In this document: piece by piece, positions 1 to 42,800 of the stretch
Numbering within the stretch: position 1 is the stretch's first letter
Layout: every line of letters starts with the position of its first letter
Origin: Laetmonice hystrix
Taxonomy: Eukaryota
DNA: 64,000 nt
Assembly: GCA_965235115.1 (NCBI GenBank)
Contig: OZ249437.1
Span: 29,636,001 to 29,700,000, forward strand
Direction: 5' to 3'
Program-made: the position numbers and the translations under genes
Notes under the pieces: model-generated
Databases searched by the model: none
What the model saw: only the letters and a program-made list of their open reading frames with translations
Told to the model about the DNA's origin: nothing

Positions 1-755
1 GCACTTCAGCCAATGAAATGGGCTAACGCGCTGCAGTATACCGGCCTCAATCTCAAAGGAGTGAGGCAGGGGACCAGCTGGCATGCCAGAGACGGATCTA
101 GGAGAGAGGCAGGGGCCGGTCCCCCCCCTAAATTTTGGACAAAATTGATTTCGTGTAATCATTTCAGTTAATTTGTTCTTTTCTTTGAATTATTTTTAAT
201 TTATTTTCCGCCCCTGCATACCTCTCCTCTCGCTGTAGGTCAGAAACGGAAACAACAACAAAAATCAAACCAACTGAGTTAAAAGTGAAACATAAGCAGA
301 CGTATGGGGATGGCTGCACCTTCTTATAGGGGCCTACTCCACTCTCAGTGCCCAACGCTCTAGCGACTTCGGCCGATAAATGTTGCAGATAAATCTGTGC
401 TCTCCTAGCGTACCGGTATTTATGTTGGCCGAGGGACATGCAGAAACGCCTGCAGCGACCTTGCAGGATTTCTGTCGAAGGCAGACACATCAACGTGACC
501 ACCACGTTGGCCTTGGGGGAAAAGATGGCACGTGTTCGGTGACTGAAAAGTCGGTCAGTGATAAAGGGATTTGGCCTCCAACAGAATGCGTTGATGCAGT
601 CCCTCGTCTTTAATCAGAGACATTAATCTGTAGTCTCCACTACAGGGCTAAACTGTACGGAGTATAGACCCCTTCTATAAGCATCAATAGTACCTAGGTG
701 GTAGTCCTTTGGAGTATTTACGACATTTCTAATGACGTGAAATTCATTGTTTCAG

Positions 756-865
756 ATTCTTGGCGGCTTCACAACTTCAATCCGTCGACGCACGGAAGGT
801 GTTTCCGTGTTTTGACGAGCCCGACTTAAAGTCTAACTTCACGGTATCCCTCGTACATCGAACAG
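756..865 (+). CDS. exon 1 in window (110 nt, phase 2/1): [36 protein letters not shown]
   Basis: ttcag| acceptor, |gtaag donor, FPCFDEP motif. Confidence 0.95.
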
Positions 866-15800: not shown

Positions 15801-18800
15801 ACATAACAGGAAACGCCTCAAAATATGGCTTTATCAAAATGTTTAGATATAACAGGTTTATATTGCAAAATTAAGCTTGTGCCCCTTTGTATGGTAATCA
15901 TATTCAATTATCGTACAAATTTACAAAGTGCACCAGCATACTGAACCATAATCCATGTGTGAAAACGTTTCTGGATTGTTGTAACCTGACTAATTACTAA
16001 TGATGTATTGTTACCCTAGCGTAGTGAAACGAAACATGGATCCTTTAATTAAATATATGATTTCTTATCAGCCGATAAACATACTTCAATCAATAATACA
16101 TCATCTCGCCTGCACCTTTACTTCATATACCGACCGTACAGTTGAGTGTAGAAAACGAAATATAATCCTGTCGTGACGTCACATGAAATAGTAGTTCCGC
16201 ATATGAGAATTAAATGAAATGTAACATTTAAAGTAATTAAATATATGATTTCTTATCAGCCGATAAACATACTTCAATCAATAATACATCATCTCGCCTC
16301 CACCTTTACGTCAGAAAATGCGTACAAACCCAGATATATTTATCTATAGTTATAACAAGTAATTCCTATAGGATTGAGAATCCTTTGTTGATACATCGAA
16401 TGCACCATCGTTAAATTTGTCATCAACCGAGAGAAATAAACTCGGGGAGGTGGTCTCACAAAAAGATTTTTCCATTACAGGGATTCATTGTTCCAAGAAA
16501 TAAGATGATGATATGGAAATTGTATGTTGCCTAGTCACAACCCATCAAAAGGATTTCTCAGATCAAAGTCTTCCCGTTCTATCCATTTTTGTAACTTAAC
16601 GAAATCGACGTTCTAATTGCGAGGCGTTCCATTTCCTTCCAGAATACACGGCGCTGTCGAACATGCCGGTTTCCAAATCGACCGTGCTCGATGACGGATG
16701 GGTGAAGAATGAATTCGAACCGACTCCCATTATGTCCACCTACCTGCTGGCCTTTGTCGTCGCTGACTTCCGGTCCCGCGAGCGCGTCAGTGAAAGCGGC
16801 CTGACGGTAGGTGTTGTGATAACTCTTCCATGGAAACAACCCCCTCCCAACACTTTCTATGTCTCCTGCCTTCATCTTTACTAGAGAACTCTTTACTAGA
16901 GACCACACTCAGAGCTGGTCTGGCTCGTTTCCGCCTTTTTGTGAAACAATACTAGGTCAACGCGCTGCCAAACTCGGTATGAAACTGAGACTTCTATTGA
17001 ACTATAATCTACGAGGCGTTCCATTATACATTATACATTATACATTATACCAAGGTGGAAATTAGTGTAGTAAGATCCTAGCCTACGCCATCTTCACTAT
17101 TCAGTCAAATAGGGTGACAAAACCTACTCGTACCGTTAGTTGTTACGTATCGACCAAGGCTATCATTAACACTGACAGATAACACGATTTCATTCGGTGT
17201 ATTTTATGAAATTATAGAAGGTTCTCAGCGAAATGGTTTAGTATATGTGCAGGGACTATTTACACACATGTAGCCAACATGAGGGGAATGAATATACATG
17301 TATGAGTACGGCTGTATTTAAATGGATCCCATATTATGTACTGCCTATGTGCCCGGAGCAGCCATACCACTTAATACAAAATCAGAATACAATCGCGTGG
17401 AATAGAATCATACATTTCACTCCAAATACGCCATTTGTGAAGCCCCTTCAACATCCAATCATGTTTGACGCGACATTTCTATTTTGTGGCAAAGTATGTT
17501 TATTTTGTGGCAAAGTATGTTTATTTTGTGGCGAAGAGTCTCAACCTACCGACTTTGATTGTCATAGGTTTCCCTGTGAGATCTGTGGTCGCTTGTGGTA
17601 GTTTCAAAGTTACGTCATTTACTAAAGGCAGTGTTGGGTCATGAAAGGGGTCGCCAGATACCCTCAATGCCTGTCAGATCATCACAGGACATCGGTGCCC
17701 CTTAAACTTCACTCAATCTATATTTGATTTCCCAGTTTGTCTCTTTACATCAAAATTAACGTGGAGTGAGAAAAAGTTTGTCAAAAAGGTCGTCACGATA
17801 CAACGCTCTACAAGCTCCGAAACCTGAGGGCTGACACATATACCAGAGTCAAGTTAAGTTTTCATTCTTTGATAGCAGTAAAACGCTTCCTGATGACTTA
17901 TCTTGGACATCTGTGGAGAAACAGATGAAGGTAATCGAATTGGTTCTGGGAAGTGAAGGCGGTTCCTGCAATGATTCACCTGATCACGTATTCCCTGTGT
18001 CTCTAACGAACAACACTCTATCACTGATTATTGACTGCATCAGTTTACAATCGTTATACGTTGGTTTCCTAGATCAGATTGTGTTCATTCCTTACATTTC
18101 CTATCTGTGCGTGTTCCCATCACACGAGGCCGTGATGACAAGGAAAACATGATAATAATTATCAATTTCCAGGAAGCATTTCTTGACATCAAATTCATGT
18201 CTTTCGGCCTAATTTAGTTATAGGATATTATCGATGGTGATGGCCTAGGTAATGGAAACATGCGGGGTTTACAACAGTCACAGACGTTGAGGTCGTGGCT
18301 TCTTGCGTGGAAGCAAACGATTTGGTTAAAGCCCTCGGATATATTTCCTGATGTTCTCTGTCTCCCTCTCAATCGCTCACTCTGTGTCTGTAAGGGAAGG
18401 TAGTTCTGACCTTACCTTGACCTCGGACTGGCTTGATTAGGGAGAAGGCGTTCCAATAAAGAGACCCCCTGCTCAATAGCGTGTTTTACATCGCTTGGCG
18501 TTGTCCTGGCGATCTATACTTGTCCACTTTAACTCATTTACTCACTTTAAAGCAAATTCTATTGCTAGCTGCCGTACCAAACAGATCCTCTCGTGCCATG
18601 GTAGTTTGTCGACAAGTGTATATCATTATCTGGAGGCAAGGCCTGTACTGATGACTTCCGTGTCATTTCAAAGCCGAATTGCTTTGTAATGGAAACTCCT
18701 GAGTAATCGAAACGAGAAGGAGGAAACTTACATGGAATCAGCCATAGTCACTTTATACGCTGAAGATGACCATTCACTTTGTTCGCAGAAGCTAATTGAG

Positions 18801-21800
18801 CAAACATGTAAGGAACCGGTATAGAATGTTTTAGTCGTTCCTTCCAAGGTGCACGGATTCCATCTTTTCGTTCCAACGAAGCCAATGAAGGGTTGCTTCG
18901 CGGAGAGCCCTCGCCAATCTCTTTTGTTTGCCACTAGGCTCCCCCCAACAATAAAATGGTCACACTAGTCTTTGCTGCTCGTAACCTGGGGAACTGCCGT
19001 GTAATACCACCGGTATTCGCTACTCATCTACACATTAAGTCAACCGACCAAGGGACTTTGACACTATTATATTTCATCCAAGTGCATTCATCTAAGCAAT
19101 TTCAGGACTGTACTGAAGTACAGGGTTCCGTTTTATATTTCTGTTGGGTGATTAATACCGTTGACACACCGACGCTCCAATGCGCTTCAAATCGCCTCAA
19201 ATCGCATTGATACGGTTCGTGACACACCCAACACGGTTCCCAATGCGCATTGAATCGCATTGAACCCAAACCACATCCACATGTGGATTCAATGCGCATC
19301 GAAGCGCATTGACAAAACCCGTTTTTGGTGTGTCAACGGTATTACTGTTGTGACCGTCTAAGGTCGAAGAAGCTCGACTTTGACATCAACAGGAAGGCAC
19401 GGAGCAGTTGGTGCTAGGTGAGAACTCAAATGGAGGTCAACGGGAGTACAGCTGATGTTTACATTTCATTGACCGTACTGACCACACTACATGGCTCCTA
19501 TATCTCATGATATATAATCAGGTGTAAGTACATTATACCCATTACACCCCTACAACACCACAATCTCATTTCTCCTTCATAAAGGCGTGTTGGCGCCGAG
19601 CTCGTATACTGACACATTCTCTAGCCTCTGATAATCTCGTAGCGTAATCATAGGAGCAAAGATTGCATGTTCCTGGTGAACTTCAGTATGATTCCGCTGG
19701 AGCCAGTAGGTAATGGTGAGTTTCGGGTTCTAGCAGGCCTCGCCTGAAGCTCTAGCAAATCAATGGGTTGCGTGTTGTAGGACAATTTATCAGCAGCGCT
19801 GTTTTCTTCAGCTCTGGCTCCAAAGGGTATGGCAAAGACAGGAGCCAAGATATCCTGTTACTTCTAGATTCAGGGACCCCGGATTCCATGACCAAAACAT
19901 TAAAAAAAAATATATTAAATAAACCAAAGTACAAATGCGATAGGCAATACCGCGCCAGAATGCAAAAGACAACGGCAATTCGTCATGATATTTCCTGTTG
20001 AAATTTAAATCTAATGGAGGCGCTATCACTAGTATCGAAGCCCATATATATTATTCATGTCGGCACAGTGTTAGTCAATGTAGAGAACGGGGACTGTAAC
20101 GAAGGACAGGCCATTCATAAACGTGACATTCATCGAATGAATGAGTGACAATGTCGGCAGACAGTATACTATAAGGTTATAGAACAGGGAACGGGTGTAT
20201 ATCCACACAGGAGCCCTTCATCCCAGTTATCAGTCAGTTATTCAAGGCTATAGGATATCAGGCGAACACAGAATGAGAAATCATTCTGCTCTGGCATTGA
20301 CAGATAAATGTCTGCCGACGTGCTCAACAGAACGTGCAAAACAGTTTTCAGGTCTATGATTTAAGTTAGTGCATTGACATTAAATGCACCCGTTAACCGG
20401 AGATAAAATGTTTGCGTTTTTCGTGAATTACCCTTGACAACGATTGGATGGCATTTGGTATCACGTGGTTGATCACATGACTTGTTCATGATAGGCCCCA
20501 CTCCATGGAAAATAGCACATGCCATGGATGAGGCTTAAATCTGCCATTACCGATCTCAAGTCGCTCTCCCACCATGGCCGTCTTGACCCGCTGGTGGACA
20601 CGATGACCTTGACGACTGCTCACAGCAAGAGTACAATGTCTAACAAGGTGTGCGTCTTCTCCAGTCGTCTTTCCGCAAATTCTACGGCATTCCAGTTCCA
20701 GTTCAATGAGCGACCATGAGATAAGAAATGGTACCATAGATACGCGTAAAAACTGTGGAGAAATAATATGTCGTATCTGTAGCTCCGCTATGCGCAGGAA
20801 GATGGTTGGCTCGAAGAACGGTTTCTGAAGTAATAGGCTAGGGGTGACCAAAAACGAAGGTGTTTTCTGTGCAGTGTTTTGCTGTAACCAAACTGACACC
20901 CCCCCCTCACCACCACCTCCACCACCTCCACCACCAGAACATTGACCAGCAATGCACTTCACACGACCTGGTGTTGTTTCAGAAAGCTGATGCCAACTCC
21001 ACCCTTCTAGCCTCAACACTCGCCTTTTTACGGGAAGTAATATATAGCGAGAGAAAGAAGAAAGAGCCAGAAAAAGACAAATGGGCCTTTGTTCTACACG
21101 ACACACCCTAAAAAAATTGGGTAGCCTTTTCATTGCTGGCGATCAATAAGTAAGATTCCGCGTTCAGTCTTGAGTAAGTCATGAGGCCTCAGTTGTTTGT
21201 GCCGTGTTGGCTCGCGATTGAATCACGCAGTCCTCACAGTATGGGTCCTACTACACTCCGAGGAGAGTTCCACACGCGATGTTTTGAACAGTCCTCTTGG
21301 CGGCCTGGGGGCTATGTAACTCGTGCAGTGACAAGTGTTTCATTCAAACAAGACAGTTGGAGAACGGAAGTTGGAGGGTGAGGAATGACGTATATTTTGT
21401 TTAAAGGGATTTGTATTTTGTACCTGACTCCAACACCCAATCATCTCGTGTGGCCAAGAGATTGCATATGAGGTGTCCTGAAAAATAGTTCAAATGTGAG
21501 CCGTACCAAGATTGGCATACAATTCATCCACTGGGATTTTATATAAATTTTCCAGCTGTTATTCATTATTCTTCATAAATACTTTCCTGGTGGATGCGGC
21601 GACTCGGTAGAGGGGAACGGAGAAGAATCATATGAAAATTATTGACCCAAAGAGGTTGTGTAAGCGGTGTCAAATAGGGAACTTTCAAACGGAAAATGGC
21701 TTCAAAGAAGTAGTCAGACCCACTGGGCCATTATGTGCCCATCGAGCCATCTTTGGCATTAAAATAAACTGACCCTTGTATCCCCATCGTGTGTGCACAC

Positions 21801-24800
21801 GGCCTGATAATGAGCCAGAGGGTAGACTGGTCTTAACATCACTTCGCTCTCTGTACCTGCTGTCATAACCAACCATCACCCGACCCAGGAAAAGGACATC
21901 TGGAAAGGGACATTCGGTTGTGCAGATCAATGGTACGAGACATTTAGACGCGTTGCCGACCCTCGTCCAGTGTCGATCGTTTGGTCTTACTGCATCGATG
22001 ACCTCCCAATGCACCAGGTTCTGTCTGTCGGCCGACGATGACCTCCCAATGCACCAGGTGCTGTCTGTCGGCCGACTGGGCCGTGCCGAAGTAGCCCGAG
22101 GTTTGCCGAGGACAAAACCAAAGTCCCGATGACGTCCGTTATCCATGTCACCTGACCCTGAGCACACATCAAAGGCACCATGACATCCGAGATCGAAGTT
22201 AACTGTTATCAGTGCCCCAGGCCATGATCGAAGCTCAGAGCGGCGGTGTTCCTGCAGGACAGCCTTTGCAACTCTATAGCAGGTCTGTTGTGTGCAGTAC
22301 GAAACTAACACAAAATGACATCGTAGATGGTTGTACATGTTTATGTACATGTACATGTATGTGTGTGGGAAGGTGCCATGATGGCGTGCTAGTGGGTATG
22401 TGTCGGTGTGGTGTAGGGGTGTGGTTTCTGTGTAGTGGCGTCAGAACTGGGCACCAAGCCATGAGGTTCGGGTTAAACCAATATAAAGATCCATTAAACC
22501 ATGATCAGAGATGTGCCATATCGTGTCTATACTCGCAGGCGAGGGCGCAAACAAACCTCAAAGATAGGTCTCTGTAGCTTCCGACGTCTGTAGGAATGGT
22601 GAGGTATTGGATAAAGTGTGGACGTGGGTGTGTGTGTATGTAGGGGTCTGGTGGTGGGTGGGTGGGTGGGTGGGGGTAGTGGAAAGGTCGGGCGATATGG
22701 TCATTATGCGATAGAAAACGTCTGCTTTCACTTGCCAATGTCTGCTCCATTACAGTAGACCAATACATCATCATTTGTCTCACTCACCATGCACCCTATC
22801 ATGGCGTGTGTGGTTAATATTACATCGGCCATGAAATGATTGATGGCTCCCCCTATTTTCATTACATTTTCTTGTTTACTCATCCCTCCTTGTTTACTCA
22901 CCCTTTTAACCAGATAAGCATTTGGTCCCAGCCAGACACCTTCGACCAGACGGCCTATGCGTTAGAATTTGCCGAGAAAGCGTACGACTTCTTCGCCAAA
23001 TACTTTGGAACACCGGAGGTTGTTCCTAAAGCAGGTAAGGGATTTAAATATATTAACGTGTTCAGACAGCTAAAAAATGCAACATTGTAATGCGAAACAC
23101 ATTTATATCCAAAAAGGTCTTACTGTGGATCAGAATAAAGCATTTGACGGAATGCTAATATGAACCACTTAATGAATTTCTGTTTTAAAGAGTTCTTTTA
23201 CCAGGTAGTGGAGCTCCCATCCGACCTCATCTCCCGATCTCACGGCTACTATAAATCAACGCCTACACAAGCCTTTCGGAGAATTCGATTGTTAGATATA
23301 TAATAAATAGAATAGACACCAGTTAATCTAGCAAACAGAAAATCTCTAAGGCAGTCTTTCCGATTGTGTTGCAGTTTGTAATAATTTTTGACTAGCACAT
23401 GTTGTCTACTCAGACAGTCTGAAGAAAACGTTCTCTACTCACCGGAGAGATTGAGAATAACAAATGAACCAAAACGAATTATTTCAGACCACGCGGCAAT
23501 TCCCGACTTCAGCGCAGGAGCGATGGAAAATTGGGGTCTTGTGCTTTATCGCGAAACCACACTGCTTCACGATGAGGATGTCTCATCCATCTCCAACAAG
23601 TACTGGGTTAGCCTCGTTATGGCTCATGAGATAGCTCACACGGTAGGTAGATTACATTACAATACTCCAGGGACTGTCATATTCGTGTCAGCAAAACGGG
23701 AGACGCCGGGAAAAAGAATCCTAGATTTCGATCCAAGTTCTGTACGGGCTTACATGACAAAATTATAGTAAGGTAGGGGCCCCCCCCCTCAAGAGCGTGT
23801 CAGATTGTGGGGGTGATTGCTGTCTCGTCTGCCACTCCCCGATGAAGGTATCCAATGGATACAAATCACCGCTTGCATAATAGACCCAGCAGAGGTCTGA
23901 TGCATGTCCACTTCGTGTTCTTGATGTCGTTTGGGCGAAGCTAATAAATGTGGCATGGGGACAATCTGATGTAAAAATTGCTCATGCTCTTAATACATTT
24001 TCTTTGGGGTCTCTAAAAGCCGCGCCTCCCGGCAAATTGGGCAGGTCCGGCCAGACACGTGATACTAGCCATCAATCACTGCGCACGCTCAGAGGTTTCA
24101 TACAACGCATGACAGAATGAGGCATTCCTGGCAGACTTTGCTGACTGACATACGAGCCGGATAGAAAATAAATATAATTTAAAATAACGGTTTTTATGAG
24201 AGAACAACTGCGTGTAAGATTTCATGTAGCGTATAGTTTCTCCCAGATAGCATCGGATTGATTATATTCATTCGTATTTTCCGAGGATGACTGAACAGTA
24301 ATTATAGGAGTCCGATGTAATCCTTCTGAATCAGTTCCTCTCTGATGTGGGGTTCGAACTCAGCTGCAAAATAAGGTTAATTTTCTTGTCACTGATATCG
24401 GAAGTGTCGCCCTGTATTTTCTTTCCTTTTGCGCCTTCTTCATTCCTGTCGTGACCGTTTTCCTAACTTTCGCTACCTTTAAATGAGATATGATGCAGAC
24501 GCCGAGGGCTAACTAGGATATAGATCAAAAGACTATACTGTTACTTTCTGCCCATGCCCCAATTCATCACCACCTAGTCTTACGCCGATAACTTTAGCTA
24601 AGACCCAAGTTTTAAGGAGATTTCTTCCTTTTAGTTTTATACTCGGCTTTAAATCAATTTAGTCACGTCGTTTTTCGTCTTAAATGGCCACCGAGGGTCC
24701 AAAACAGCGACAAACTGTCTGCTGCATAGATCAGCTGGCCGACGGAGTCGTTACTTAACGTTGTCGTCTGTAACGTTGTGTGGGCGTTTAACGGAACATA

Positions 24801-27800
24801 TCTGTAATCCACAATCTGCGATGACGCATTTAAAAACTAGCTGGTCGGTAGTAATTTGAATCAGTATGCCAGTAGCGTTAAATATTTGAGACATAAGCTT
24901 GTTAATGAAGATCACAGCGAACCTCTTTTTGACAGACCAATCACGACCATCGTCACATCGTGATTTTGGTCGGGTTTGCTTGCAGGCCTAGCTACCTGCC
25001 TTAAGATAAGGTAACCAAGTAGAGACACGTCAAAATATAGGCTCGCGCGGATAGAAACATTCCAAATTCTATTGGATATATGAAGTTGCAGACATAAAGA
25101 CAAAACGGATATGAAGAATATTGTCGCGGGATTGGGATTGTTAGAATATTCTACCAGGTTGTTCTTTGTTCGGCGGTAGCTATTAACCTCATTGATGAAT
25201 TCCGTACAACCACGGCAACAGCAACCATATGGATTTCTCATAACTTTCATTTTAAATCAGGCAGCCACCACAAGCGATGTTGTCCATTGTCAGTGAGGTA
25301 TCTAGAAAAAATGACTTTTTTCACACTTTTTTCATCTTCATACTTATTTTTCATACCAATCTATGTCTGGTGGCAGCACTGAATATGTGAAAATGCACAA
25401 AATGTAACCCACCATACTTTGCTAAAGGTTAACTACCCTAGATACCCTGACCTGCACAAAGTTTCAAAAAATACCCGAGTCTAACCATACCCCAGCCCTG
25501 GTGCTGACACACTAATTTACATATTTGTCTCTCAAGACATACACACGTGACTGCAATTCAGAGAGGGCGCTGACCTCGCAATTTTGCTGTGTTATTTTTA
25601 ATAATAAATTAAATAATTTTCACCAAAACAAAACAGACACAAAATATGTTTCAAAATTAACTTTCAGAGTTTCCCTGACATCTTTAGTAGGTACACTAAG
25701 ACTTTTAAATTAGCAGGAACTTTGTTTATATCTCAGCAAAATGTTGCGGCTCTGCTATTATACACACCATTATATAGTAATTTGCGGTTTGTTTGCTGGC
25801 ATTTCAGGGGTCTTTACTTAGCTAAAGGCTAGGTACCCCTCTGGTCTTCACAAACTATGTACAATCACCTTTCACAATCGATTTCTGACACTTTCTGAAG
25901 GTCTGCATCGACTGGATGTACAATTATAGCGCGCCACCTGGCGAATAGGACATCTGGGGTTCGACTATTAAACTTGTGTTCGTATCGTTTTTATGTGTCA
26001 TGATACGTATCGTATCGTGGCACAAGTCTTTGAGCTAGATACACTCCGGTATGGCCCTGTGATTGATACCTTGTGTCGTGCGTTTAGAAAGGTCATTCTA
26101 GATTCACGTGTGTTTAATGCACAGTGTATGAAGTAAAGGTGATCTCGTTGTGCAGAAGTAATCAAATTCTCCCTTGAAAGAATAGTTATACTGAATGCAT
26201 GTGATGATAGTGATTTTACTCACAACGGTGAAGAGCATTGTCGTTTTGTGAACTGAAAATTAAATAATAAATTAAGATAAAGAGTGCAGTTGGTTTTTAA
26301 GCCGGAACTAAAATTAAATGTCAAAAAACAATTATGAACATTTACAATCTCACAAAAGCCAACAGTGTAACGTTGTTGGGATTCCACATAATGAACATTA
26401 ATATAAAAGCAATCCATAAATACAAATACATGTGTACATACTGAGAGAAGTACACCGGCCAAGTGAAGGAGTGTTTGATGCCTTTAAGTTATTTGAAGCA
26501 TAAAATACCTGGGCAACGATTCGTGTAGCAGTGTTTGTAAATACAAGACGGTTTTAAATGCGCTTTATTAAGGAGCACTTAAATGATAAGACCTGATTGT
26601 CATGTTGAAGTGGTTTTTACCCGTTCAGCCTGTCGATGTTCTAGTGGTTCGGTAACATGGCTACGATGCGTTGGTGGGACGATTTGTGGCTGAATGAGGG
26701 ATTCGCTAACACGCTAATGTACTTCGCCCTGGACAGCATCTATCCAGAGTGGAAAGTGGTAAGTAGAATTACCTGACATCACTATCCAGGCACGGATCCA
26801 GGATTTTATCAAAGGGACGCGGCACAAACGTTCTGACGTCGCCCTTACAAGGCCACATTAATGCCGCGGTTTTTTAATTACGAAAAAGCTATGCTCGGCC
26901 AACTGGAGGTGGGCACGTGCCCCCTGCGCCCTTAGATCCGTGTTTGATATCTTTATAACTATCAGGGTGAGTAGGCTAATTGACATCAATATCATGTTCA
27001 CTGGCATCAATAACATGATAACCATCATGGTACCGTAAGTAGCCTAACTGGCATCATTTACCAAGATGACTATCATACCAGTACCAAGGTGAAGCTATCG
27101 CTGTGATGTCATCTGAAGGTATACAAGAAGGTTTACGACTATTAAGAATGAGCACAGATCGTGTCAAAAGGAGAAGTCTAAACAATGAACCTGTCCAAGG
27201 GTGTAGCCAGGGGGGGTTCCGGGTTGCCCGGACCCCCCCCCCCCCCCAAAAAAAAATAGCTAAATGAATAACTAAATAGATCTAGATGAATTACTAATAT
27301 TATGGTTGGGACCCCCCCCCCCCCATATCTCAGTTCTGCCTATACACCCCTGCTCTCCAAGTGATAATCTCAGATGTATGCTAGTTATAGCAAGGCAGAT
27401 TTTTAAGAAAACCTCACCAGCAATTAATATAGATTCTCCGAGACGTCGTTGGAATATAAATCACCTGCACGGATTTTCGCTGCAGCTGCTGCTGTTATCG
27501 TGAATGAATGGACGTTTCAGAAAATGGCGCGGAAGTCTTGTCAAAATAATTCGCCTTGAAAAATGACGCGTCGCTGTGAGCGTTCGACGCCGCCACGGAA
27601 GTGATCGTTATCTCAAGTTGGACGTTCCGTCGTGCGTCTCTCGTTTCGGCCGCCATGACGCGCAGCACACAGTCGATTACTTGTCAATTAGAGTTTGTCT
27701 CCTGGGTCGGCGTCCTCGTCTTCCGGCCTGCCTGAATCTTGTCAAATAACGGGAGCATGATAATAAACAGTGATCACCAAGGTCGGGAACGACTGGTTGT

Positions 27801-30800
27801 CACCAATACCAACACCCCTCCACCTGACCCCTGTGTCATCAGTATGGGGAATATTATTGTGTAACCTGTAGTGTACAAGATGCAACACTTTGTTTGCTAT
27901 TTTCTGGAAGCCCAACCGTTAGGGACTTCCCACTTCATCCTTCATAATGGCAGTGAACACGCGCCATTGTCTACGGCTCATAGTGTGATGAAAGAGACTT
28001 AAATCCGACGCAATCTTATATTCCCTTATGGAGGATTTCTGATATAAGATAACTGGCAGTTGACCTCTGGGTGATTTGGGACTGTTAACTTCCGGGCAGT
28101 AAAACCGAGGTGAGGAGCAGGCCTGTAATGACCCACCATCTCCCACCAATGAGCTGGGCCTACAAACGACCGAGTGTCTTGTAAATGAACTATGGACGGA
28201 TCTGTCTTCTGTGTATCTGACCACTAATGGGCACGTGCGCCCACAATGTGCCCGGAGTTCGCCCACAATGTGCCCGGAGTGCGCCCAGAGACAATTTGCC
28301 CGGAGACCGCAGCTGGGGGCTGATGCGCCGATCAGTCGTATGGGTCGAAGAAAAGACTATACATTACCTGATGGGATGAGCCAGTATTGTGGAACATTTC
28401 GAATATACATTGGTAGTTTTCTAACAAAACTATTGTCCCTGACACAAGACTAGGTACAATTCAGCAAAATATGATTCTATTTTAACTTTAGTTGAGAGTT
28501 TGAACCCATGCGCAAGACCTCTTTTTCAAATTACGGTATCTATAGAAGCTGATACACGACTTGCTAGTGATGCAAGCAAATTGAAATGAATATTAAAATC
28601 GCGAAAGAAGACGTCATGAACTCTAAGAAATAAGCGTTTTCCAGGGGGGGGGGGGTTCTCCCTATGCCCACACGGCAAAAGGGGCTTGGATACGGGCGCC
28701 AAAATGGTACAATTAATTCAGTGAAACCTGTCTCATGGAAGGCCAGGAGGCGATACACAATCCAGAAAGAAATCCTCCGGGCTACTTTTATTTCAGTGAG
28801 ACAGACTAAGCGAGCGAAACTAATATTCCGTCCGAGTCAATAAGTCTGCCATGACACATATTGAGACCATTCCCTGGATGGCACTTTGAAGGCTCTAACA
28901 TGAGGAAGCAAGAGCCCCAAGCCGTCTACAGGGACCACATTGATCATGAAAGTTCGCGTTGACATGGGACTTCCGTTACCCATAACGCAATACGTCAACA
29001 GCGTTCGTCTTAAATACGTCATTGTCTTTCCGTGGTCAACAGATTACGCCACGTTAGTGCCGTACTGAAGTACCACATGATGGAGTCATTCTTCTCTTCC
29101 GAACAACATAAAGAACCCACAAACCAATCTTGTGACTTTCAGCAAGTAAAATGGCATTATTTATCTCGCGACCTTTCTTGGACTATTTTGCAGTAAAATA
29201 GGATTTCCGAGATTTAAATCTTTGCCAAGCTTATCTGTCATTTCATTAGGCTTTTCCGTCATTTCACCATAAATTCTACCCATTTCAGCCTACAATAGTG
29301 ATCATATCATGTTTCTTTTAAACTTTTTCTAAGGCAGCAGGGGTTGCCACTATCTAGAAGAATAGCCATTATCCCTTATATTCGTTTCAAACACTGCATC
29401 TATCACAATACAGTAGAAGACATTTAAGCAGCAGGTGCTCGGCATAGCAGTTAAAATGTATTTGTTCTATTATGTCAATTCCGTGCTTCTAGTCTACTTA
29501 GATGTATCTGTGCATCGCTAAATACCAGAAAGATAGCCCTATTATTAACCACGTCCAGTGTGTTGAGACTATATCAGAAAGATAATGGTATGAAATCGAC
29601 GTTTTAATCTCCCCTATATAAAACATATGCCGTTTTCTTACCCAACATCCAATGCCTTCAGAAAGCCTTTTATTCTTTACGAGTATTTTATAGGAATCTT
29701 GTTGTCGCTTGCGTTGCTGTCTAACCGTATATTTCAGCCAGCCATTCCAGCCAAGCGCAGACATGTCTTAAGCCTTTGTATTTAAGTTGTTGGCGTAGCG
29801 TGGTCTTGTAAAGAGAATAGATATATGTCCAGGACACAGGCTTCTAGAAGTACAACATTTAGGAAAACTAATCTATATCCTATTTACGTCTTACAAAATA
29901 CACTCTTTCTAATATCTACCCAAGGCTGCTTCAGGGGCCTGGCCCCCTGTCTAGCTTTCTTTGAGAGGGGGCGTTAGGATCTACCCTTGGTTACAAATCC
30001 TCGTTATACACCACTGATGGGAATTCCAAAGGAACCAATTGTGGTCCACCACCGGACTGTGCCGTAAACAATGTGTGTCTGACAATGTGATTGCAGTACG
30101 ATCTACAGTTGATGAACAACAATGTGTGTCTGACAATGTGATTGCAGTACGATCTACAGTTGATCAACAACAATGTGTGTCTGACAATGTGATTGCAGTA
30201 CGATCTACAGTTGATCAACAACAATGTGTGTCTGACAATGTGATTGCAGTACGATCTACTGTTGATCAACAACAATGTGTGTCTGACAATGTGATTGCAG
30301 TACGATCTACAGTTGATGAACAACAATGTGTGTCTGACAATATGATTGCAGTACGATCTACAGTTGATCAACAACAATGTGTGTCTGACAATGTGATTGC
30401 AGTACGATCTACAGTTAATGAACAACAATGTGTGTCTGACAATGTGATTGCAGTACGATCTACAGTTGATCAACAACAATGTGTGTCTGACAATTGCAGT
30501 ACGATCTACAGTTGGTCAACAACATCTACCCAGTGATGACCAAGGATTCCTTGCTCACGTCACACGCAATCTCTACCCCGATTGCTGACCCCGATGACAT
30601 TCCGCAGTTCTTTGATTCCATCTCGTACGACAAGGTAAGAGTTGCCATGAGACTTATTTACCCGCCAATTCTCGCACCTGAAAGTCCAGTTATAAATGTT
30701 TAAAAAAGAAAAATTCTAAGGTCACGGATCAGTGTATGAGAGTGGATGAGAGTTATATACCCCAAAATATCTCCTTTTTTTTCCTTTATACAAATAGTTG

Positions 30801-33800
30801 TAGCAGTGCTTCACCCCAGGCCTTTATTTATTTTCACAATTTGGATGTACGTCATATCATTTAGTATCATTTTACTTTAGTGTGCCTAGTGTACGTGCTT
30901 GCGAATAATCCATTATTCGGACTCGAGCCTCCTTGATCTATTCATTATCTTTGCAGGGGATGGCAGTTCTACGACTTTTACGGGGATTTCTAGGTTGGAA
31001 TGACTTCCGCAAGGGTCTACAGGTATTAAAGGACAACACTTTCGATGCAGAAAGCTTTAATATTTTATGTGATCCAGCTCCTATGTGTTATAATTTAAGA
31101 CCTTAAACCCGACATGAAACACACGAGGTATCACGATTATCCTTATGTTATCCGAGTGATTTTAATTAAAAGTTAATTAAAATTTGCAATTTCACAGTAG
31201 AAGGTTTGCTCGCTGTAATGGTAGTCAGAACGACATGAAAGTGTATTGAACCTTCTCGACGTGCTTTGTATAATTATTTCTTAGCTCACTACCATACACA
31301 TGACCGATGTTAATTTAAAATGCATCCCATCCCCTGTAAGCGGTCAATTACGTCATAGGCCTATGCTTCAAAGTAAAGGGATTTTTTAAAATTTCTTATT
31401 TAGATGTACATCAGTCGCTACAAATTTAAAAACGCCGAAATGCCGGAACTTTGGAAGACGTTTGCTGAGGTAAGCTATCAGTTTAATGTGTCGGTCCACC
31501 TTTAACGTCACGATACGTCATCGCTCCTCCCTGACCCGAGCCGTCATGCCGATTCTACGTCCAACGTCTCGGGCCATATTCCATCCTCAGGAGATAGACC
31601 TCTCCCAACATAACATAAATGCCAATTACTGTCAGGAAAGCGCGCCATCACACTGCAGCATTCCAGCTTTAATTGAATATCTCGGTAGTTTATGCTCATC
31701 GTGTCCTGATCAAATGTAGCGTTTTCATCAGCCACTTGACATTACTGTCGCACACCGATGAGATCTACGAGCAGTGGTAGGCGAGCCAAGGACCCTAGTT
31801 CTGATATTTCGGTTTCAATAAAACGACCGCGACAAATCCAAATTTATGACTGACACCCTATTTACTCATCTTTTTCAATTCACTGGTAAATCATTTCTCT
31901 ATCTATTTCATCTTCATTTTCATTCAGCATTACAGTCCTAAATTGTTTGTGGTGCTAAGTGAGTATAATATCTAGGTGTTTATTACTAAATGGCCAAGCT
32001 ACTTCATGTTCTAATGATCGTTTTTATTTCAGGCTGTCAACAATAAATATAATGTTGGCGAAATTATGGACACGTGGACACGACAAATGGGCTTTCCCGT
32101 TGTTACTGTCCGTCATATCCGGGGCGACGTCTACCGGCTTGAACAGACACGATTCCTGTTGAACCCGGACGACCGATTTAACCCCAGATCTAGTAAATAC
32201 GGGTAAGCAGCAACTTAAAATAGGGTGCATACTATAGGGACACTGAGGTAAGGACGGTATCCACCAAGCGGCCAAGTGTGGATCAATAGTATAGGAATAC
32301 TTAGAGGTTTACTGCAATGTGCAGTGGACAACCAAACCCATGCAGGTTTAGTGGATACGGCCCTTTATCATTTTAATTAAACTCAGCAGGACACCCCTTA
32401 AATCACATGGGGGTTTAAGATGGTTCTCGTTGGGTTTTTTTGTGGTTGGTAAAATGTTTTCCCGAATCGAGAGGAATTTTCCCGGTGTTGTCATGACGTA
32501 CACCATTTCGCTGCCGGATTGTGGACACCGTATACTTGGCGCCACGCGGCAGACGATCCTCTGGCCGTCCAAGGCGAGTTTCATGTCCCGCTACCAGACC
32601 GATTATCATATCAGTGTAGACGTCCATTGGCTGTACTGCTGGAGTGTCACTTAGCTCCCTCAAAACGTACTCGCATGAGGCCGGGTTCTGTTAGGCCGAT
32701 ACAGAAATTCAAATCCACCAATGTTTCAATAATCAATCGGGGGGTGCTGCCTTGGCAACACGACGATGTTACTACAGAGGCCGATTGGGAGCAAAAGTAA
32801 AACAACGAGGGCTCACAACTACAGCCATTATCCTACATTATGATGCACGGCTCTTTTTTCACCGCATTGTCATGGCCGTGGAATGACCATTCACGTAAAC
32901 CTATTCCGCGGCGCCGGCCACGCCACCAAAGCCACAATTTAGGCTCCCTGCAAACAATTCCATTACAAAGCATCCCCCCTTAACCACTGCATTCCGAGGC
33001 GTCGCTTCGGACGTGATTTAGCGCCAATACTCCTGGCTAAAAAATAAAAACGGCTGGCCAGAAGTGGCCGTCTCTCTAACCAGATGCATCCATCTCCGTC
33101 TTTGAAATGTGTTTGTAGTTGGCGTGGGTCCCCCATACATCAGGTGATCTACAAGCTGCTCAGGCAGGGTCACACTCCAAAATTAGGGCCCTGGGTGTAT
33201 TGCCTCAATTTATGTAGCCACAGGCGACCTTTGTGTGATTATTTCATAAAGGTCACACTGCTGGTGCGGCGGAGATGGTTGCCATGCTTTCAGTGATAGG
33301 CAGGTGTGGCATTGAGAATGTGGATTGCCTGAATTCAGGGACACTATAATTTACATGGTGGCCGCCCGATGGCGCTGTCTGACGTGCCGAGGTGCCATCA
33401 TTACACGTCTAGTGTTGGGCTGTCCGTGTAGTGTGATTCTAAACACACACCCCTGCTCCCCGTGTTCAGATTGTGGTTGGTTTCTATGACTGGTCGTTAT
33501 GAAGTGAGTCGCCGTCTGATGGGGTATTCTATTTTTAACGAAGTGATTTGTATCTTTTATTGTTTTTTTTGGATCGAATACTCTTGCAGGGTACTTATCA
33601 TTGTTGAGTGATTTTTTCTGTTTTTTCAATGTAAAATTATATTAGATACAGATCAAATTCGTAGATTATTACTGAATGAAGACTAAAATGTCAGCACAAG
33701 TGCTTTGCCGTATGTAATCCTATTTTCTGAGGGCGGGCAGGGGTGTATGCGGTCCTTCAAACAGTCTAAGTGGTGACGTTCATTAAAAGATAAAGTTTCA

Positions 33801-36800
33801 GTTCTAGCAGAAGTTTCTGCACGTCCCAATTATCGACTACAATCATATAGAGAGCCCCGAAGACTGAATTTGTTTTCTGTTTGCAGCTACCGGTGGCGAA
33901 TACCGTTCATATACAAGATAGAAGGGGACAGTGACAAGAGAACGAGCTGGATGAATATGAAATCAGGTAAGTTACGTGTGCAAAATATGCAAAATAGAGG
34001 GGCGAAATCAATCTGATATAACCAGGAACCGGTCTAAGAGTCAAGGGAAACGAGCGAGAGGGAAGAGGAAGCCCGTCGCCGTCAGGTGCGGGTCAGTCAG
34101 GCTAAGTAGTATCAGAAAATGGCAATAAAAATCAGGCTAAACATGTTTGTGGGGGATGTAACTATCGCCCGCTGGTCCTCACCCGATGTTTAACAATGTA
34201 ATACCAGGACCATTGCGATGCTAGTGCTGAGTCATTAATCAATTTTTAATAGGGGTAAATTTACTAAAGAAGACTTTTTATTTGACACATTATAATTGGA
34301 ATTCATCATGCGTACGTTGTCCACTCCGCCAAGAATCATGAATTGTTGTCAGAATGTCACATTAGATGGCCTCATAATAATCGTATCAGCGATGTCCTGT
34401 GTGGCTCAGAGATATTCATGGTCACCTCTAGTTGACAGAACTGCATGCGACCCGACCGGTCATTGTCAATTCTGAATAACAATGGCGCCCCTCACGGCAG
34501 CCGACCAATGAGAGCCCAGGTCTGTTGTCGCTGCGGGATTAGAACAACTACCGCGCGTTACTAAGAAACCATGCTATAGTGATTAATCAATGACATACGT
34601 CGCTGAAAAGCGCCCCCTATGTGCAGAGCAGGTAATTCGGGGTGGCTGTATGCGTCAGTGTAGCATGAATAACGACCATCGCAAGTAGGTGTAGGTCCGA
34701 AAGGGCACAACTCACTTAAGCGTCGCCATCCCGCTAGGTTTCTTCATATTATCATAAAAATGGTCTTCTAAAATTCATTACGGTATTAAAATCTTACCAA
34801 ATTCACGCGTATGTGTACTGTTTGTCATGTTTAAAATTGATGATGCGGTAAAGAAGAAATCAATTTTTTTGAAGTTCGTATTTTTATGTATGAGGATTGG
34901 AAATCGACTTAATATGTTTAACAGTCAGTTTAACGAGAATACTTTAACCTAAAACACTTAATTTCAAAAGAGGAGAGCAAGGGGAATGCTTGTGAATCCT
35001 TCCCAATCAATCTCTGGATATAGGTTGTATTTTACTAAGCTTCTCGGTATTTTCCTTAAGATTTCCATTACTGAGGTCCATGTAAGACCTGTCGTATCTC
35101 TGGGAGCGACCATGGTTCAATATCTGTTTATGAGAGAAGTCCAGATTACTATGCCAGACACAGGTTTCTCACCGACCTGTTTATCCCTTCCAGCTGAGGT
35201 ACGGATACCCCAAGGATCATGGCTGATTGGTAACGTGGATTACATGGGATTCTATCGCACCAACTATGATGAGACCATGTGGCAGCGCCTAATACAACAG
35301 CTCAAAAAGGATCATAAGGTGAGCCCATCACCCATCTCACCTACAGGTTAAGCTCTATGTGGTCTTGATTTAATCGGTGTCGTGTGGCCAGGCAAAAGGA
35401 AAACGCGTTGTTCCCACCTCGTGAAAAATAGGTTTCTCTTCCCTTTTGGGTCACACTGAGTGCCACTTTAATTGGTCGCCAAAGACGACCTGGCGTCGAC
35501 TTCAGGCAGACCCTAGACGTGGGGGCTGTCACGGAAGGAAACCTCAATGCTCTCGGAGGGGAATTCGTTCCTGTGTCACAGGCTCCACTGTGAATACTAA
35601 TGGAGCGAGTTGGGTGAGTGAAAGGCTACAGTTGTTCCTTTTACTACTGGTCTGGGATTGGTGACCAGTTCTTTTCGGGAGTGACGAATCGCGGAATGCC
35701 CACGCCGCATCTTGGAAAACCGCGGTTTTAAAACAGCACGGCTCCATCTAGCGGGCCCTCGCAGTAGATGAACATTGGCGTTGGCGTTCCCCGAAGAGCC
35801 CGTTTGTAGCACGCCTGTATAATTACCTAGCTGTTCCCAGTGATAAATCGGTCAGGCAATCATGATGGTAGTATATTATCTACCGTCCCCACCTACTCCT
35901 AAATTCCACATCATTGTCGCCTGGTAACTACTCTCCCGCTGGTGTGAATGGCACTTCTTTCAATACCGAAGAAAATGACCTTGGAGAGATGACCGGAGAG
36001 GTTAGATGTGAATAATACGTGTTCACCATCTGGTAGAACATCCCCAAGGTGGAATCGAGTGGATGGGATGTAGAATCATAGCCATGAAATGCAAAATTTT
36101 ACTAAATATTCTCATATATCCAGGAATACATCCTTAAGGTGAATATTACTTGTGTAAGAAAACGACAGTGGAATAATATGCTAGCTTACCACAACTATAA
36201 ACGAAGGGCTTCTACTCCTATAATAAAGGACGCTTCTGGGCGAACTAAAAGGTTTGATGTTCGTGTAGTGTTACAACGACTTCTTGCGACTTCAACGACG
36301 AACACCACCATGCCGACCCACTGCCCGACCCTCACCCCCACTACCTGCCCGACCCCCACCCTCGATCCACTGCCCGACCCCCACCCTCGATCCACTGCCC
36401 GACCCCCACCCCCGACCCACTGCCCACCCTCACCCTCACTACCTGCCCGACCCCCACCCTTGACCCGCTGTCCGACCCCCACCCTCGACCCACTGTCCGA
36501 CCCCCACCCTAGACTCACTGCCCGACCCCCACCCCAGACCCACTGCCCACCCTCACCCTCACTACCTGCCCGACCCCCACCCTTGACCCACTGTCCGACC
36601 CCCATCCCCGACCCCCACCCTAGACCCACTGCCCGACCCCCACCCCCACCCACCCACTGCCCGACCCCCACCCCAGACCCCCACCCTAGACCCCGACCAC
36701 GACTACTGGCGTCGTGCCATTATTTGCTGGCAGTGTCCTCATCATCTGGCCAGATGACATATTTATTGTGTGTCATGTCTACACCACTAAATATTCACAG

Positions 36801-39800
36801 TCATCATCTGACCAGATGACATATTTATTGTGTGTCATGTCTACAACACTAAATATTCACAGTCATCATCTGACCAGATGACATATTTATTGTGTGTCAT
36901 GTCTACAACACTAAATATTCACACTCATCATCTGACCAGATGACATATTTATTGTGTGTCATGTCTACAACACTAAAGATTCACACTCATCATCTGACCA
37001 GATGACATATTTATTGTGTGTCATGTCTACAACACTAAATATTCACACTCATCATCTGACCAGATGACATATTTATTGTGTGTCATGTCTACAACACTAA
37101 ATATTCACAGTCATCATCTGACCAGATGACATATTTATTGTGTGTCATGTCTACAACACTAAATATTCACAGTCATCATCTGACCAGATGACATATTTAT
37201 TGTGTGTCATGTCTACAACACTAAATATTCACAGTCATCATCTGTCCAGATGACATATTTATTGTGTGTCATGTCTACAACACTAAATATTCACACTCAT
37301 CATCTGTCCAGATGACATATTTATTGTGTGTCATGTCTACAACACTAAATATTCACAGTCGCCACGGGATAGGTGTTGAGGCCGAGCTCTGATGGCTTCG
37401 TGACGGATGACGTTGATGTTACTATAATTAGGTTGTGCTTATTCTGTTAGTGAATAAAAATAGTGCAGGACACTATTTGATAAAGTAAACGTAAAGCTTT
37501 TAGTGACAAAACCTGTCAGTTTCGTCCGGGATATAATTATCTTGCTTAAGTACGTCCGTGACGAGCTGTTAATGCACCATGCGCTGAAATATTACGTCGC
37601 AGATACAAATAGGTACATGTAGTTCCAGGAACAGAAATTAGTAATTTATAACACGCCGCATCTATCAAGGAAACATGTCAAAGTCATATGACTTTGGTGA
37701 CCTTTCATATCGATGATACGAATCTTTTGTTGATTTTTAATCATAATCTGTTATTACAACTGCATGGTCGGGAGCTAGCCTCGCGTTTTTCGCCCTCGCA
37801 CGTCGCCCTCAATGGCGTATCGGGGGCAATAACAACATGATAACATAGAAATTTGATTATTTGCAACGTTTGGAACCCCCCCCCCCTTCCCACCAATCTT
37901 TTGGAAAAAATCTTCTTAGACAATAACGCTACTGGCCCGAGCGAACCTTGTGCTGTCGTGCAGGCGGTGTTTGGCCGTTCGTTTTACAGCAATCCAATTT
38001 TCGTCCGACTTGAAGTGACACGTCTGTTGAGACAGGCAACAGACCACACGAACGCGGACCTGTCACGTCTTCCTCACGGAGCCTCACGTCTTAGGTCGCC
38101 CGTTCCATGTTGACATTCCCATCTTCGCGGCTCACGTTGTGGGCCAATAAATATCCGTTATTGTCTGAGCACCACTCGTTCCGTTTCCAGCCTAACCTCA
38201 GCCATACGGATGAAGCCACCTCGCCGAGTGTGGCGCTGTTTTGTAAACCCGCCCGAACCACGACGTGACGACCTGAGTTGTCTATATTCGCGCGACCCCA
38301 CCAGATGGAGCTACTACCGATACAGATGTCGTTACGGCTTCTCCTGATCTCGTCCAACCACTTATTACTGTGACATTTACGTCGAATTATGTCGCGATGG
38401 GTCTGCAGGGTCTCATTGCCCTCAGATGTCATTTAATTAGTCAAGCGCCCTTTCCACGAGTCCCCGAAGCAAGAAGCAAGTTAGAGCAAACACAGAAAGA
38501 ATGGCTTCCTGAATTTCCTTATTTCTCTCGCAGGCTTTCTTTCTTTATTCTTTTGGGTTTGTTCATAATTTAAGCAGACCTAAATTAGTCTTAAAATTCC
38601 TTTTAATGCTTCGCTCTGCCTTGCGGGTCCTCAGCGTGATTACCCCCAACATCCAATTTTTCGATAATTTCCCCCTGATTTCTTATGGTGTAGATCGGAG
38701 TCAAACAGATGGCTTGCGCCGATGCTATAGTTTTCATTCTCAATGAAATCTAGATCCCGTCAGATCCTGAGGTATTTTTACATAATATTCTTCCCCTGGT
38801 GAAAAATATGTTTTAGGATGGAGAACATGGCTTATCACACTGCATTATAGACCCTATCAAGGAATTTTAATTAATGCATCACAGGGGAGATTACATTCGG
38901 CTGCCGAATGCCCTGAAAAAATAGACTAACATCCCGTGTAGGGCTAATCAGAGCCTTGCTGAGGCATTAGTATGGCATCTTGCCCTGGATAATTTACCGC
39001 GCAGTGCCTCATATAATAGTTGAGCCATTCCATGTGCCTTATCAGTATGCCATATAGTATGTGAATATTTAGTGGAATAATTTGTAAGTGAATGTTTAAT
39101 CATCAATATCACATGGGTAGGTATAGATCCATACGTAAATCATTCGATAGAGTTATGGCCATTCTACCTGCCTTCCTGTCCGTTTGGATTTTTTAGCCTC
39201 AGATTCCGGATAACAGTAAGAATAAGCCTCTCCCAGATTAATTAATCTCTCTAAAACAATAACAAGCACCTATTTTTTAACAAAAAATGACGCCGCCTTT
39301 TTCTGATATAGACGCGCCTGTGCACTGAGTCCGTATAACGTAATAGCTGGTCCCTTCAAGCAATCCCTTGCCTCTGTCCAACATTTGGCTTTTTACCACG
39401 TCTCTGACAAGACTATCGTGTACCCCCAACTTCCAGCTTCTCCGACAGCCTGCCGTGTAGCCAAGGACAGTCGACCCCCAGAGGAGTGTCTGATGCATCC
39501 TCGTCTTCTGCTCCTATGTTTTGCCCACTAGGGGGCCTGGAAGACATACGATTAGTATGGCCCCGCCATGGCCACACGACCGAGCTACGCCCATGATTGA
39601 TTAGCTTACTCCGACACGAATATAGATGAACCCATGTTTCCTGGTCTCCCAGCCACAGAGACAGGTTTGATGTTCCCCCGCCGCGCTAGAGTGGCCTGTG
39701 GTGCCAACATTGGTTGCCTATCTACCGACTACTGCCGTATATGTACGCCACCTCAAAGCGTGAAGAACCTTCAGAAAATCTAGATCAAAGGTCGTCGTTG

Positions 39801-42800
39801 GCGACAAGCGGCACTCTTGTCTCCCTACATGGTTTTCCACGAAAGCTCCTTCCTGTTAACTTTCACTTTTATTCGATACCTGGCTTGTGAAGGCTGCCTC
39901 GATTTATGAATTGATTATCTTTTTACCAGGTATCTGGGTATGGGAACGAGCGGTGTTTGTTTCTGGATAGCATTGTTTTATACAGGTCCGCATGTCTCTT
40001 TTAGAAACAGAACCTTAAGGCACGAATTTTGTTTACGATCGTATTGAACCAACTTTCATCTCGGTAAATCCCATCCCGTCGATTACCGTTCCTTAAGCTG
40101 TCAGAAATTGTATCCCAATCTTGGATTCACGGCGAAGATTTAAATGGACTTTCCTGCTGAGCTGAGGTTTAAAACATCCTGATTAAAAGTGATTATGGTT
40201 GTAATTTTTTCCTGTTTCTCCCCTAGGTGTTCTCCGCAGCAAACCGTGCAGGTCTGATCAGCGATGCCTTCAATCTAGCCCGGTGAGTAGGAATATGACA
40301 TGTGAATGACCCTTCCTTAATTGAGCAATTATTCATTCTTATAAAGCAATGGATCACGGCGATAGGGCTGTAAGGTCCCGATACAAAATAATTAATAAAC
40401 GTCTCATAGATCGAGCCACCGATGTAATTATTGTAATTACACAGCTAACTGATTGCGGCAATTATATATGACCAAAACTTTGTTTAAAAGCTGTTTATTG
40501 TACATGTCGTGTACCTTTTCAAAATGTGGCGTATAACATATTGTTCCCGTGAAGCCCCATATGGTTTTTTATCCTGTTCAGTTTATTTTCTTCCTTTTAA
40601 ATTTGTTCCGAATATTTAGAAAGAAAAAATTTAAATGGTTACAGGTATATAAAATGAGAAAAAGGTATAGAATTAGTAAAAACCGTTCCGTCTATTCCTT
40701 TCGCACCGTGCCATTTAATATACTCATGTGTTTCACACGTTATATTTTTTACAAGAATGCTTGCTTGAAGCAATTATGATAAAAGTGCGGGTTTTTTTAG
40801 TATTTGCCCATCTTGTATCATGCAGGTTCTTTGATAACTTGTCTCGTTCTTTGAAACTTATTTTTTAGCTACTTAGTGTTGGTTCACTCTCTTGGATGTA
40901 GTTGGGGGCTTCGCCTTTAATAGAGAAGGGTTCTTCGCTGATCAATTCAGCAGGTCGAAGCCAATTACTGGGTTGATATAACCTCGGTGCGAAGGCTCGA
41001 GAAGATGGTGATTTTGGCCCTGAAAGGTTCGGGTTGTGGTTAGTCTGAGTGCTGAGTGAAAGGTCAATACTCTTGGTAATTCTAACCACCGATATATAGG
41101 CACCGCCTGAGTAGGTGCGTTTTCGCATGCCATCAGGAGCACCATGCAGCACAAACACCACTTCCTTGCCATCAGCAGCACCAAGCACAAACATAACTTC
41201 CTTGCCATCAGCAGCACCCAGCACAAACACCACTTCCTTGCCATCAGCAGCACCCAGCACAAACACCACTTCCTTGCCATCAGGAACACCCAGCACAAAC
41301 ACCACTTCCTTGCCATCAGCAGCACCCAGCACAAACACAACTTCCTTGCCATCAGGAGCACCCAGCACAAACACCACTTCCTTGCCATCAGGAGCACCCA
41401 GCACAAACACCACTTCCTTGCCATCAGGAGCACCCAGCACAAACACCACTTCCTTGCCATCAGGAACACCCAGCACAAACACCACTTCCTTGCCATCAGC
41501 AGCACCCAGCACAAACATCACTTCCTTGCCATCAGGAGCACCATGCAGCACAAACACAACTTCCTTGCCATCAGGAGCATCCAGCACAAACACCACTTCC
41601 TTGCCATCAGGAGCACCCAGCACAAACACCACTTCCTTGCCATCAGCAGCACCCAGCACAAACACCACTTCCTTGCCATCAGGAGCACCCAGCACAAACA
41701 CCACTTCCTTGCCATCAGCAGCACCCAGCACAAACACCACTTCCTTGCCATCAGCAGCACCCAGCACAAACACCACTTCCTTGCCATCAGGAGCACCCAG
41801 CACAAACACCACTTCCTTGCCATCAGGAGCACCATGCAGCACAAACACCACTTCCTTGCCATCAGGAACACCCAGCACAAATACCACTTCCTTGCCATCA
41901 GGAGCACCCAGCACAAACACCACTTCCTTGCCATCAGGAGCACCATGCAGCACAAACACCACTTCCTTGTCATCAGCAGCACCCAGCACAAACACCACTT
42001 CCTTGTCATCAGCAGCACCCAGCACAAACACCACTTCCACTTCCTTGCCATCAGCAGCACCCAGCACAAACACCACTTCCTTGCTAAAATGCCGATAACG
42101 AACGTTGTACCAACGAAATCCGCCGATACCGTTTCACTATAAAAGGAAAAGGTTGACATCTTTATCACAGTCTTCCTCTAGGCTCTAAAGATGGTGAAAT
42201 GTACGATTCCGGTGAGTGAGCCCCCCCCCCTTAACCATAGGTGAACATCGTACAATAAAGGAACCGTCTTAGAGTGGTGACTTAGTGAATTAATGAATAC
42301 GTAATGCTGTCATCGAGACAGCGAATAGGACAGTTAGTGAATTACGTAATGCTGTCATCGAGACAGCGAATAGGACAGTTAGTGAATTTAATGTTTGAAT
42401 ACGTAATGCTGTCATCGAGACAGCGAATAGGACAGTTAGTGAATTACGTAATGCTGTCATCGAGACAGCGAATAGGACAGTTAGTGAATTACGTAATGCT
42501 GTCATCGAGACAGCGAATAGGACAGTTAGTGAATTTAATGTTTGAATACGTAATGCTGTCATCGAGACAGCGAATAGGACAGTTAGTGAATTACGTAATG
42601 CTGTCATCGAGACAGCGAATAGGACAGTTAGTGAATTACGTAATGCTGTCATCGAGACAGCGAATAGGACAGTTAGTGAATTACGTAATGCTGTCATCGA
42701 GACAGCGAATAGGACAGTTAGTGAATTACGTAATGCTGTCATCGAGACAGCGAATAGGACAGTTAGTGAATTACGTAATGCTGTCATCGAGACAGCGAAT

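Follow-up and report, generated by a model that had tools for sequence, protein, structure and literature searches.

Introduction

Tandem repeats lying across exon-intron boundaries, termed 'mirages', have been described in amphioxus (lancelet) Adh3 and in the globins BflGb6 and BflGb9 (PMC3087553, which cites Canestro et al. 2002 for the Adh3 mirage). Their units measure 10–72 and 150–160 bp and the copies carry splice signals; in BflGb6 the array is built on the acceptor side, and its two haplotypes count 6 and 3 units. RT-PCR indicated that splicing of Adh3 and of the globins is apparently undisturbed by the mirages, and intron gain from such repeats was proposed (PMC3087553). The human CBS variant 844ins68 duplicates the junction between intron 7 and exon 8; its distal copy is strongly favoured and the mRNA is normal (PMC2630376). 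In human F7, a 37-bp VNTR in intron 7 repeats identical donors that remain silent, and further human arrays occur in 6-16, CBS intron 13, LAMIN B2 and PDGF, with use of pseudo-sites in 6-16 and CBS intron 13 (PMC1557585). Finally, the length of an intronic VNTR in ABCA7 was linked to exon skipping and expression by cohort association (PMC5954066).

Here we analyse an array of 51-bp units where intron 5 meets exon 6 in an M1-family aminopeptidase gene from Laetmonice hystrix, within a window of 64,000 nt (the whole stretch of DNA analysed). Judged by its sequence, the array belongs to the mirage type already described: the unit spans an exon-intron boundary, its 51 bp fall within the 10–160 bp of amphioxus and the splice signal is duplicated. 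As in BflGb6, a 3′ intron end is joined to the 5′ part of an exon. The amphioxus hosts are Adh3 and globins, in which splicing was seen by RT-PCR, whereas the host here is an M1 aminopeptidase and exon 5–6 splicing is predicted (PMC3087553). With CBS 844ins68 the locus shares the duplicated intron-end/exon-start junction, but carries eight extra copies of 51 bp against a single one of 68 bp (PMC2630376). It resembles the F7-type arrays in that the end unit spans the boundary, the splice site is repeated and the exon-proximal site is dominant, here by prediction; those arrays lie on the donor side and this one on the acceptor side, and splicing of 6-16 and CBS intron 13 also employs two pseudo-sites (PMC1557585). 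A change of splicing or expression with VNTR length, which a splicing rheostat would need, has a precedent in ABCA7, by cohort association (PMC5954066).

A brief search of the open literature for 'mirage' minisatellites across exon-intron boundaries returned amphioxus globins only, and the one paper returned for annelid minisatellites and splice sites (PMC12783039) describes no boundary-spanning arrays in its matching passages. Occurrence in annelids may thus be unreported in the open literature.

Results

Structure of the array and its host gene

The features of the locus, in window coordinates, are:

754..51330, + strand: M1-family aminopeptidase gene; the window holds about 20 of its exons, and the 5′ part lies further upstream (homologue mapping)
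23488..23642, + strand: exon 4, with GAMEN and HEIAH (exon 3–4 joint in run X4)
26645..26758, + strand: exon 5, ending in phase 0, GTAAGT donor, followed by intron 5 of 3741 nt
30067..30524, + strand: 51-bp minisatellite, 9.1 copies, intron end plus exon start (TRF; single locus genome-wide)
30069..30476, + strand: units 1–8; every unit contains a decoy acceptor preceded by CTGAC at -15, meets an in-frame TGA on read-through and includes a cryptic donor in frame, AAT/GTGTGT
30477..30499, + strand: true end of the intron, shortened by 5 nt relative to the decoys, lowest acceptor score among the gene's 18 (1.5 bits, biased downward as explained below)
30500..30634, + strand: exon 6, 135 nt, encoding YDLQLVNN...SISYDK of the PF01433 domain (joined with exon 7 in run X4)

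TRF delimited the array at 30067–30524 with a period of 51 and 95% matches. Each unit consists of 28 nt of intron end and 23 nt of exon start. The acceptor AGs end at 30096, 30147, 30198, 30249, 30300, 30351, 30402 and 30453, in steps of 51, and then at 30499 after a step of 46. This period and these nine positions agree with the unit build and the acceptors given in the earlier note. The AACAA microhomology that it reported was likewise present, in the exon as well as at the array's left border. Units 2, 3 and 8 match one another exactly; the remaining five of the eight full units differ by 1–2 bases, as the claim of point changes among copies implied, while TGCAG is kept in 8/8 decoys. Two generalizations needed correction: the peptide YDLQL... 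predicted for copies 1–7 becomes YDLLL in copy 4, and TTGAT, said to be carried by the decoys, is TTAAT in copy 7.

We rejected the idea that the unit stems from a dispersed element: the unit pattern has 8 matches in the 627-Mb genome, all of them inside the array. The boundary-spanning array is a genuine one and not a chance repeat.

Three homologues map to about 20 exons across the window, without any insertion at the exon 5/6 junction. The first exon seen in the window aligns at residue 229 of the Capitella protein, and exons are numbered here by their count in the window. Among named proteins, one from Capitella teleta (P0003) comes closest, at 98% over exon 4, with annelids among the other close named matches, which makes an annelid host probable. 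The M1 hallmarks GAMEN, HEIAH and WLNEG are found in exons 4–5. Exon 6 matches PF01433 at E 3.4e-5, which is below the whole-protein cut-off, and the named top matches of the gene carry PF01433; the Tyr of SISYDK in this exon we take to be the M1 catalytic Tyr.

Seven other minisatellite arrays of the window were tested and none spans a splice boundary of the aminopeptidase gene. Long intronic minisatellites are present in this gene at 988–1688, 36739–37360, 41128–42084, 42290–43192 and 46023–46631.

The array in DNA contigs

We examined whether the array could be an artefact of assembly. A contig looping through the unit was found in 3/3 DNA-like runs, with a depth of 563–773 against ~25–55 in the flanks, i.e. 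roughly 10–20 times the flank depth; all of these runs come from one sample, possibly the assembled one, the one point in favour of an artefact. Contigs were compared over the two flanks of the array. The unit lacking 5 nt is also present in a DNA contig of run X1. Together with the point differences in five of the eight full units, these contigs make an artefact vanishingly improbable. In the same sample, the loop was 8.6–14.5 times as deep as the bubbles taken together, whereas 31-mers of the array have a mean multiplicity of 4.8 in the assembly; depth, however, is not copy number. The mean depth of 443 of the deleted-unit contig was left out of any count of deleted units, since a contig mean can mix shared words, and was hence not taken as several such units.

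A contig of run X2 begins exactly at 30495, where a second allele could differ or could have a decoy with the TTGGT of the exon. Between 22880 and 35400 of the window, the DNA contigs of one sample showed many single-base and small indel differences from the assembly, which suggest high heterozygosity.

Reading frames opened by the nine acceptors

With AG 30499, window exons 3–20 form 657 codons free of stops, and all 18 exons checked are intact. Entered from the phase-0 end of exon 5 and read through, decoys 1–7 meet a stop after 14 codons, and decoy 8 shifts the frame to a TGA at 30586, inside exon 6. Only 30499 among the nine AGs keeps the aminopeptidase frame open; the full-length enzyme thus requires eight proximal AGs to be skipped. 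In these respects (the phase of exon 5, the ninth AG as the only one to open the exon body, the frameshift of decoy 8, the need to skip) the earlier reading was borne out.

Run X4 is spliced, although no run is recorded as RNA: GT..AG joints were found between exons 3–4, 6–7, 7–8 and 8–9. It provided three short, low-depth contigs on the exons of the gene, of which the one on exon 6 begins at 30518; none of them reaches exon 5 or spans the exon 5–6 joint, a blank that favours no AG over another. The gene is intact and transcribed. A partly inactivated allele, which had been offered as one outcome of the array, is not supported, with 18/18 exons intact and exon 6 joined to exon 7 in this RNA-like run.

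The decoys had further been described as all poison. This holds solely for read-through, because each unit possesses an in-frame donor, AAT/GTGTGT, 27 nt after its AG, which offers another outcome: a unit might be retained as a 27-nt in-frame micro-exon, encoding YDLQL[I/M]NNN, which would then be joined to the exon body at AG 30499. Exons as short as 27 nt are poorly defined. The cryptic donor scored 6.0 bits, above 4 of the 17 scored donors of the gene, and units 1–7 used in this way would leave introns of 70–376 nt; among the donors in our survey (see below), however, the same 6.0 bits rank near the 5th percentile, and homologous proteins are without insertion at the exon 5/6 junction. Such inclusion is very unlikely. 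If true, it would represent intron gain in progress according to the model in Fig. 7 of PMC3087553.

Choice among the acceptors

The true acceptor scored lowest of the gene's 18, at 1.5 bits against 3.0–3.5 for the decoys, with a matrix trained in this analysis from whose seed set the true site was omitted, which biases its score downward. Acceptor score predicts use poorly, since 28 of 189 ordinary AGs of intron 5 score at least as high as the true site.

Branch-like motifs were then compared. The decoys carry CTGAC at -15 and decoys 2–8 also TTGAT or TTAAT at -36, while the true site has TTGAT at -31 and a CTGAC only 10 nt from the AG. Each decoy having branch-like motifs of its own, TTGAT does not single out AG 30499, and this motif, called branch-point-like in the earlier note, was rejected as a selector of the last AG. 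Most simply, TTGAT is a single base change common to the copies, with A where the exon has the G of TTGGT at its position 16, one mutation that was then amplified. RNA structure masking the decoys was ruled out as well: two units folded no better than shuffled sequences (z = 0.09) and the unpaired probability was flat across the nine AGs (0.28–0.44). Local sequence does not pick the last AG.

The AGs do differ in how far they lie from the strong donor of exon 6 at 30635, 135 nt for the true AG versus 181–538 nt for the decoys. As the upstream intron is long (3.7 kb), exon definition is the likeliest mechanism. From general knowledge of splicing, exon 6 would be recognized as a unit, the donor at 30635 pairing with the nearest upstream acceptor over 135 nt rather than over 181–538 nt.

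The weak true acceptor, with its CTGAC at -10, could nevertheless raise the leak above its usual level. Under an unselected leak, a measurable fraction of splicing would go to the decoys and long alleles would be mild hypomorphs, their products being cleared by NMD, without any part in regulation. The score of the true acceptor below the decoys, the CTGAC placed at -15 in the decoys versus -10 at the true site, and the partial use of pseudo-sites in human donor arrays (PMC1557585) are in line with it. Against it, 12 of the 14 further arrays described below likewise have a decoy that equals or beats the real acceptor, and the count of 28/189 high-scoring ordinary AGs applies here too. We regard a leak of this kind as unlikely. 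Quite improbable is a leak in proportion to copy number, either to NMD, so tuning the aminopeptidase, or into 27-nt micro-exons; if it were true, the locus would be a polymorphic dial that also captures a moment of intron gain from a mirage.

Boundary arrays and poison decoys elsewhere in the genome

To place the locus in its genome, we surveyed 0.80 Mb around kinase and myosin matches (L002–L031 and L040–L129, with some overlap), including 60 stretches centred on weaker kinase matches. This contained 178 non-redundant minisatellites with periods of 15–200, about one per 4.5 kb. From 274 exon-like matches, 213 acceptors and 196 donors were called, and an array end spans 7 of each. One acceptor, L059, was removed by eye because its likelier AG sits just past the array, which brings the count from 14 to 13/409 boundaries (3.2%, 95% interval 1.7–5.4%).

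For comparison, 76 of 3587 control points placed 100–1000 nt into introns coincided with an array end (2.1%), and the enrichment at boundaries over this intronic control was not significant (Fisher p = 0.16); the boundary-calling matrices were trained on the same data and missed weak acceptors (L112), and some control points fall in neighbouring exons. Shifts of 30 and 60 nt (20/406 and 19/405) were excluded from the pooled control, as these points still lie inside boundary units. Boundary arrays are common in this genome, at a rate close to that of array ends in the background. With 3.2% per boundary, the probability that one or more arrays occur in a gene of 36 boundaries is 69%, so that an array in such a gene is to be expected. 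Extrapolated from 13/409, the genome probably holds thousands.

The poison nature of the decoys was then compared with 14 other acceptor arrays, chosen by eye on a recognisable exon body and lying mostly before kinase and myosin exons; 10 of 13 exon bodies matched a Pfam family at E 0.05 or better. In these arrays 103/104 decoys stop or shift the frame, and in 12/14 some decoy scores at least as high as the real acceptor. Single duplications of 20–100 nt were simulated at the gene's other 17 acceptors; 79% (44542/56457) proved poison, a null that the nearest decoys, poison in 13/14 of the other arrays, did not exceed (p = 0.17). Poison decoys are the default for such arrays. The in-frame stop of the aminopeptidase unit is itself not a given, since only 170 of 544 simulated 51-nt duplications contain one.

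The sole open decoy among the 104 was seen on the minus strand in L118:2072–2406, before a myosin-head exon, where the nearest decoy (57 nt) keeps the frame and contains no stop. In another survey stretch, L073 (C1:43480100–43490000), a single kinase gene region carries four boundary-spanning arrays within 6 kb, three of the acceptor type (78x3.7, 46x15 and 49x7.3) and one of the donor type (29x94.7).

Orthologous exons and the origin of the array

Five metagenome loci encode the orthologous exon; the fifth begins inside it. In the four that include the upstream intron (L130–L133), the exon is 135 nt long and in phase 0, and 0/4 have an array or an upstream copy of the exon start. These exons are distant (98–109 of 135 nt identical), so the comparison tells no more than that the array lacks an ancient origin. 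The conservation expected of a poison site in AS-NMD is thus not seen among them.

This bears on the proposal, made in the earlier note, that array length is a selected rheostat which tunes the level of the enzyme through NMD. In its favour, each of the eight decoys is poison on read-through, although only 170/544 simulated 51-nt duplications are, VNTR length affects splicing in ABCA7 (PMC5954066), and the depth of the loop contig hints faintly at a longer second allele. Yet poison is the rule in such arrays and arises by default, about 3% of tested boundaries carry an array, close to background, the array is not conserved, and RNA structure does not distinguish decoys from the true site. The rheostat is unsupported, though not refuted, and we hold it to be extremely unlikely.

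Taking sequence, survey and homologues together, the array is a mirage minisatellite and most likely a neutral by-product of the repeat load of this genome, with a spliceosome that likely skips the decoys and uses the last AG. The open frame of AG 30499 only, the homologues without insertion, the GT..AG joints in run X4, the lack of an array in the four orthologous exons and the abundance of arrays here support this reading. The apparently undisturbed splicing of amphioxus mirages (PMC3087553), the favoured distal copy in CBS 844ins68 (PMC2630376) and the silent donors of F7 (PMC1557585) point the same way, while the pseudo-sites used in 6-16 and CBS intron 13 (PMC1557585), the ABCA7 VNTR (PMC5954066) and the low score of the true acceptor point against it. 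Occasional slips to a decoy would run into early stops, and NMD would remove the products, which would be noise rather than regulation. The array may have started from a 51-bp duplication between the two AACAA microhomologies, followed by a single G-to-A change in the duplicate and then by expansion through slippage or unequal exchange.

As one of probably thousands, the single locus alone matters little. Stacks of near-identical acceptors are nevertheless natural tests of 3′ splice site choice, for which the detailed case (F7) is donor-side, and the aminopeptidase locus is a fair test case because its true site scores below the decoys and each unit offers a potential in-frame micro-exon.

The donor of exon 6 varies between loci. 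In L131 and L133 the orthologous exon has a GC donor (AAG/GCAAGT), and in the window, L130 and L132 it has GT.
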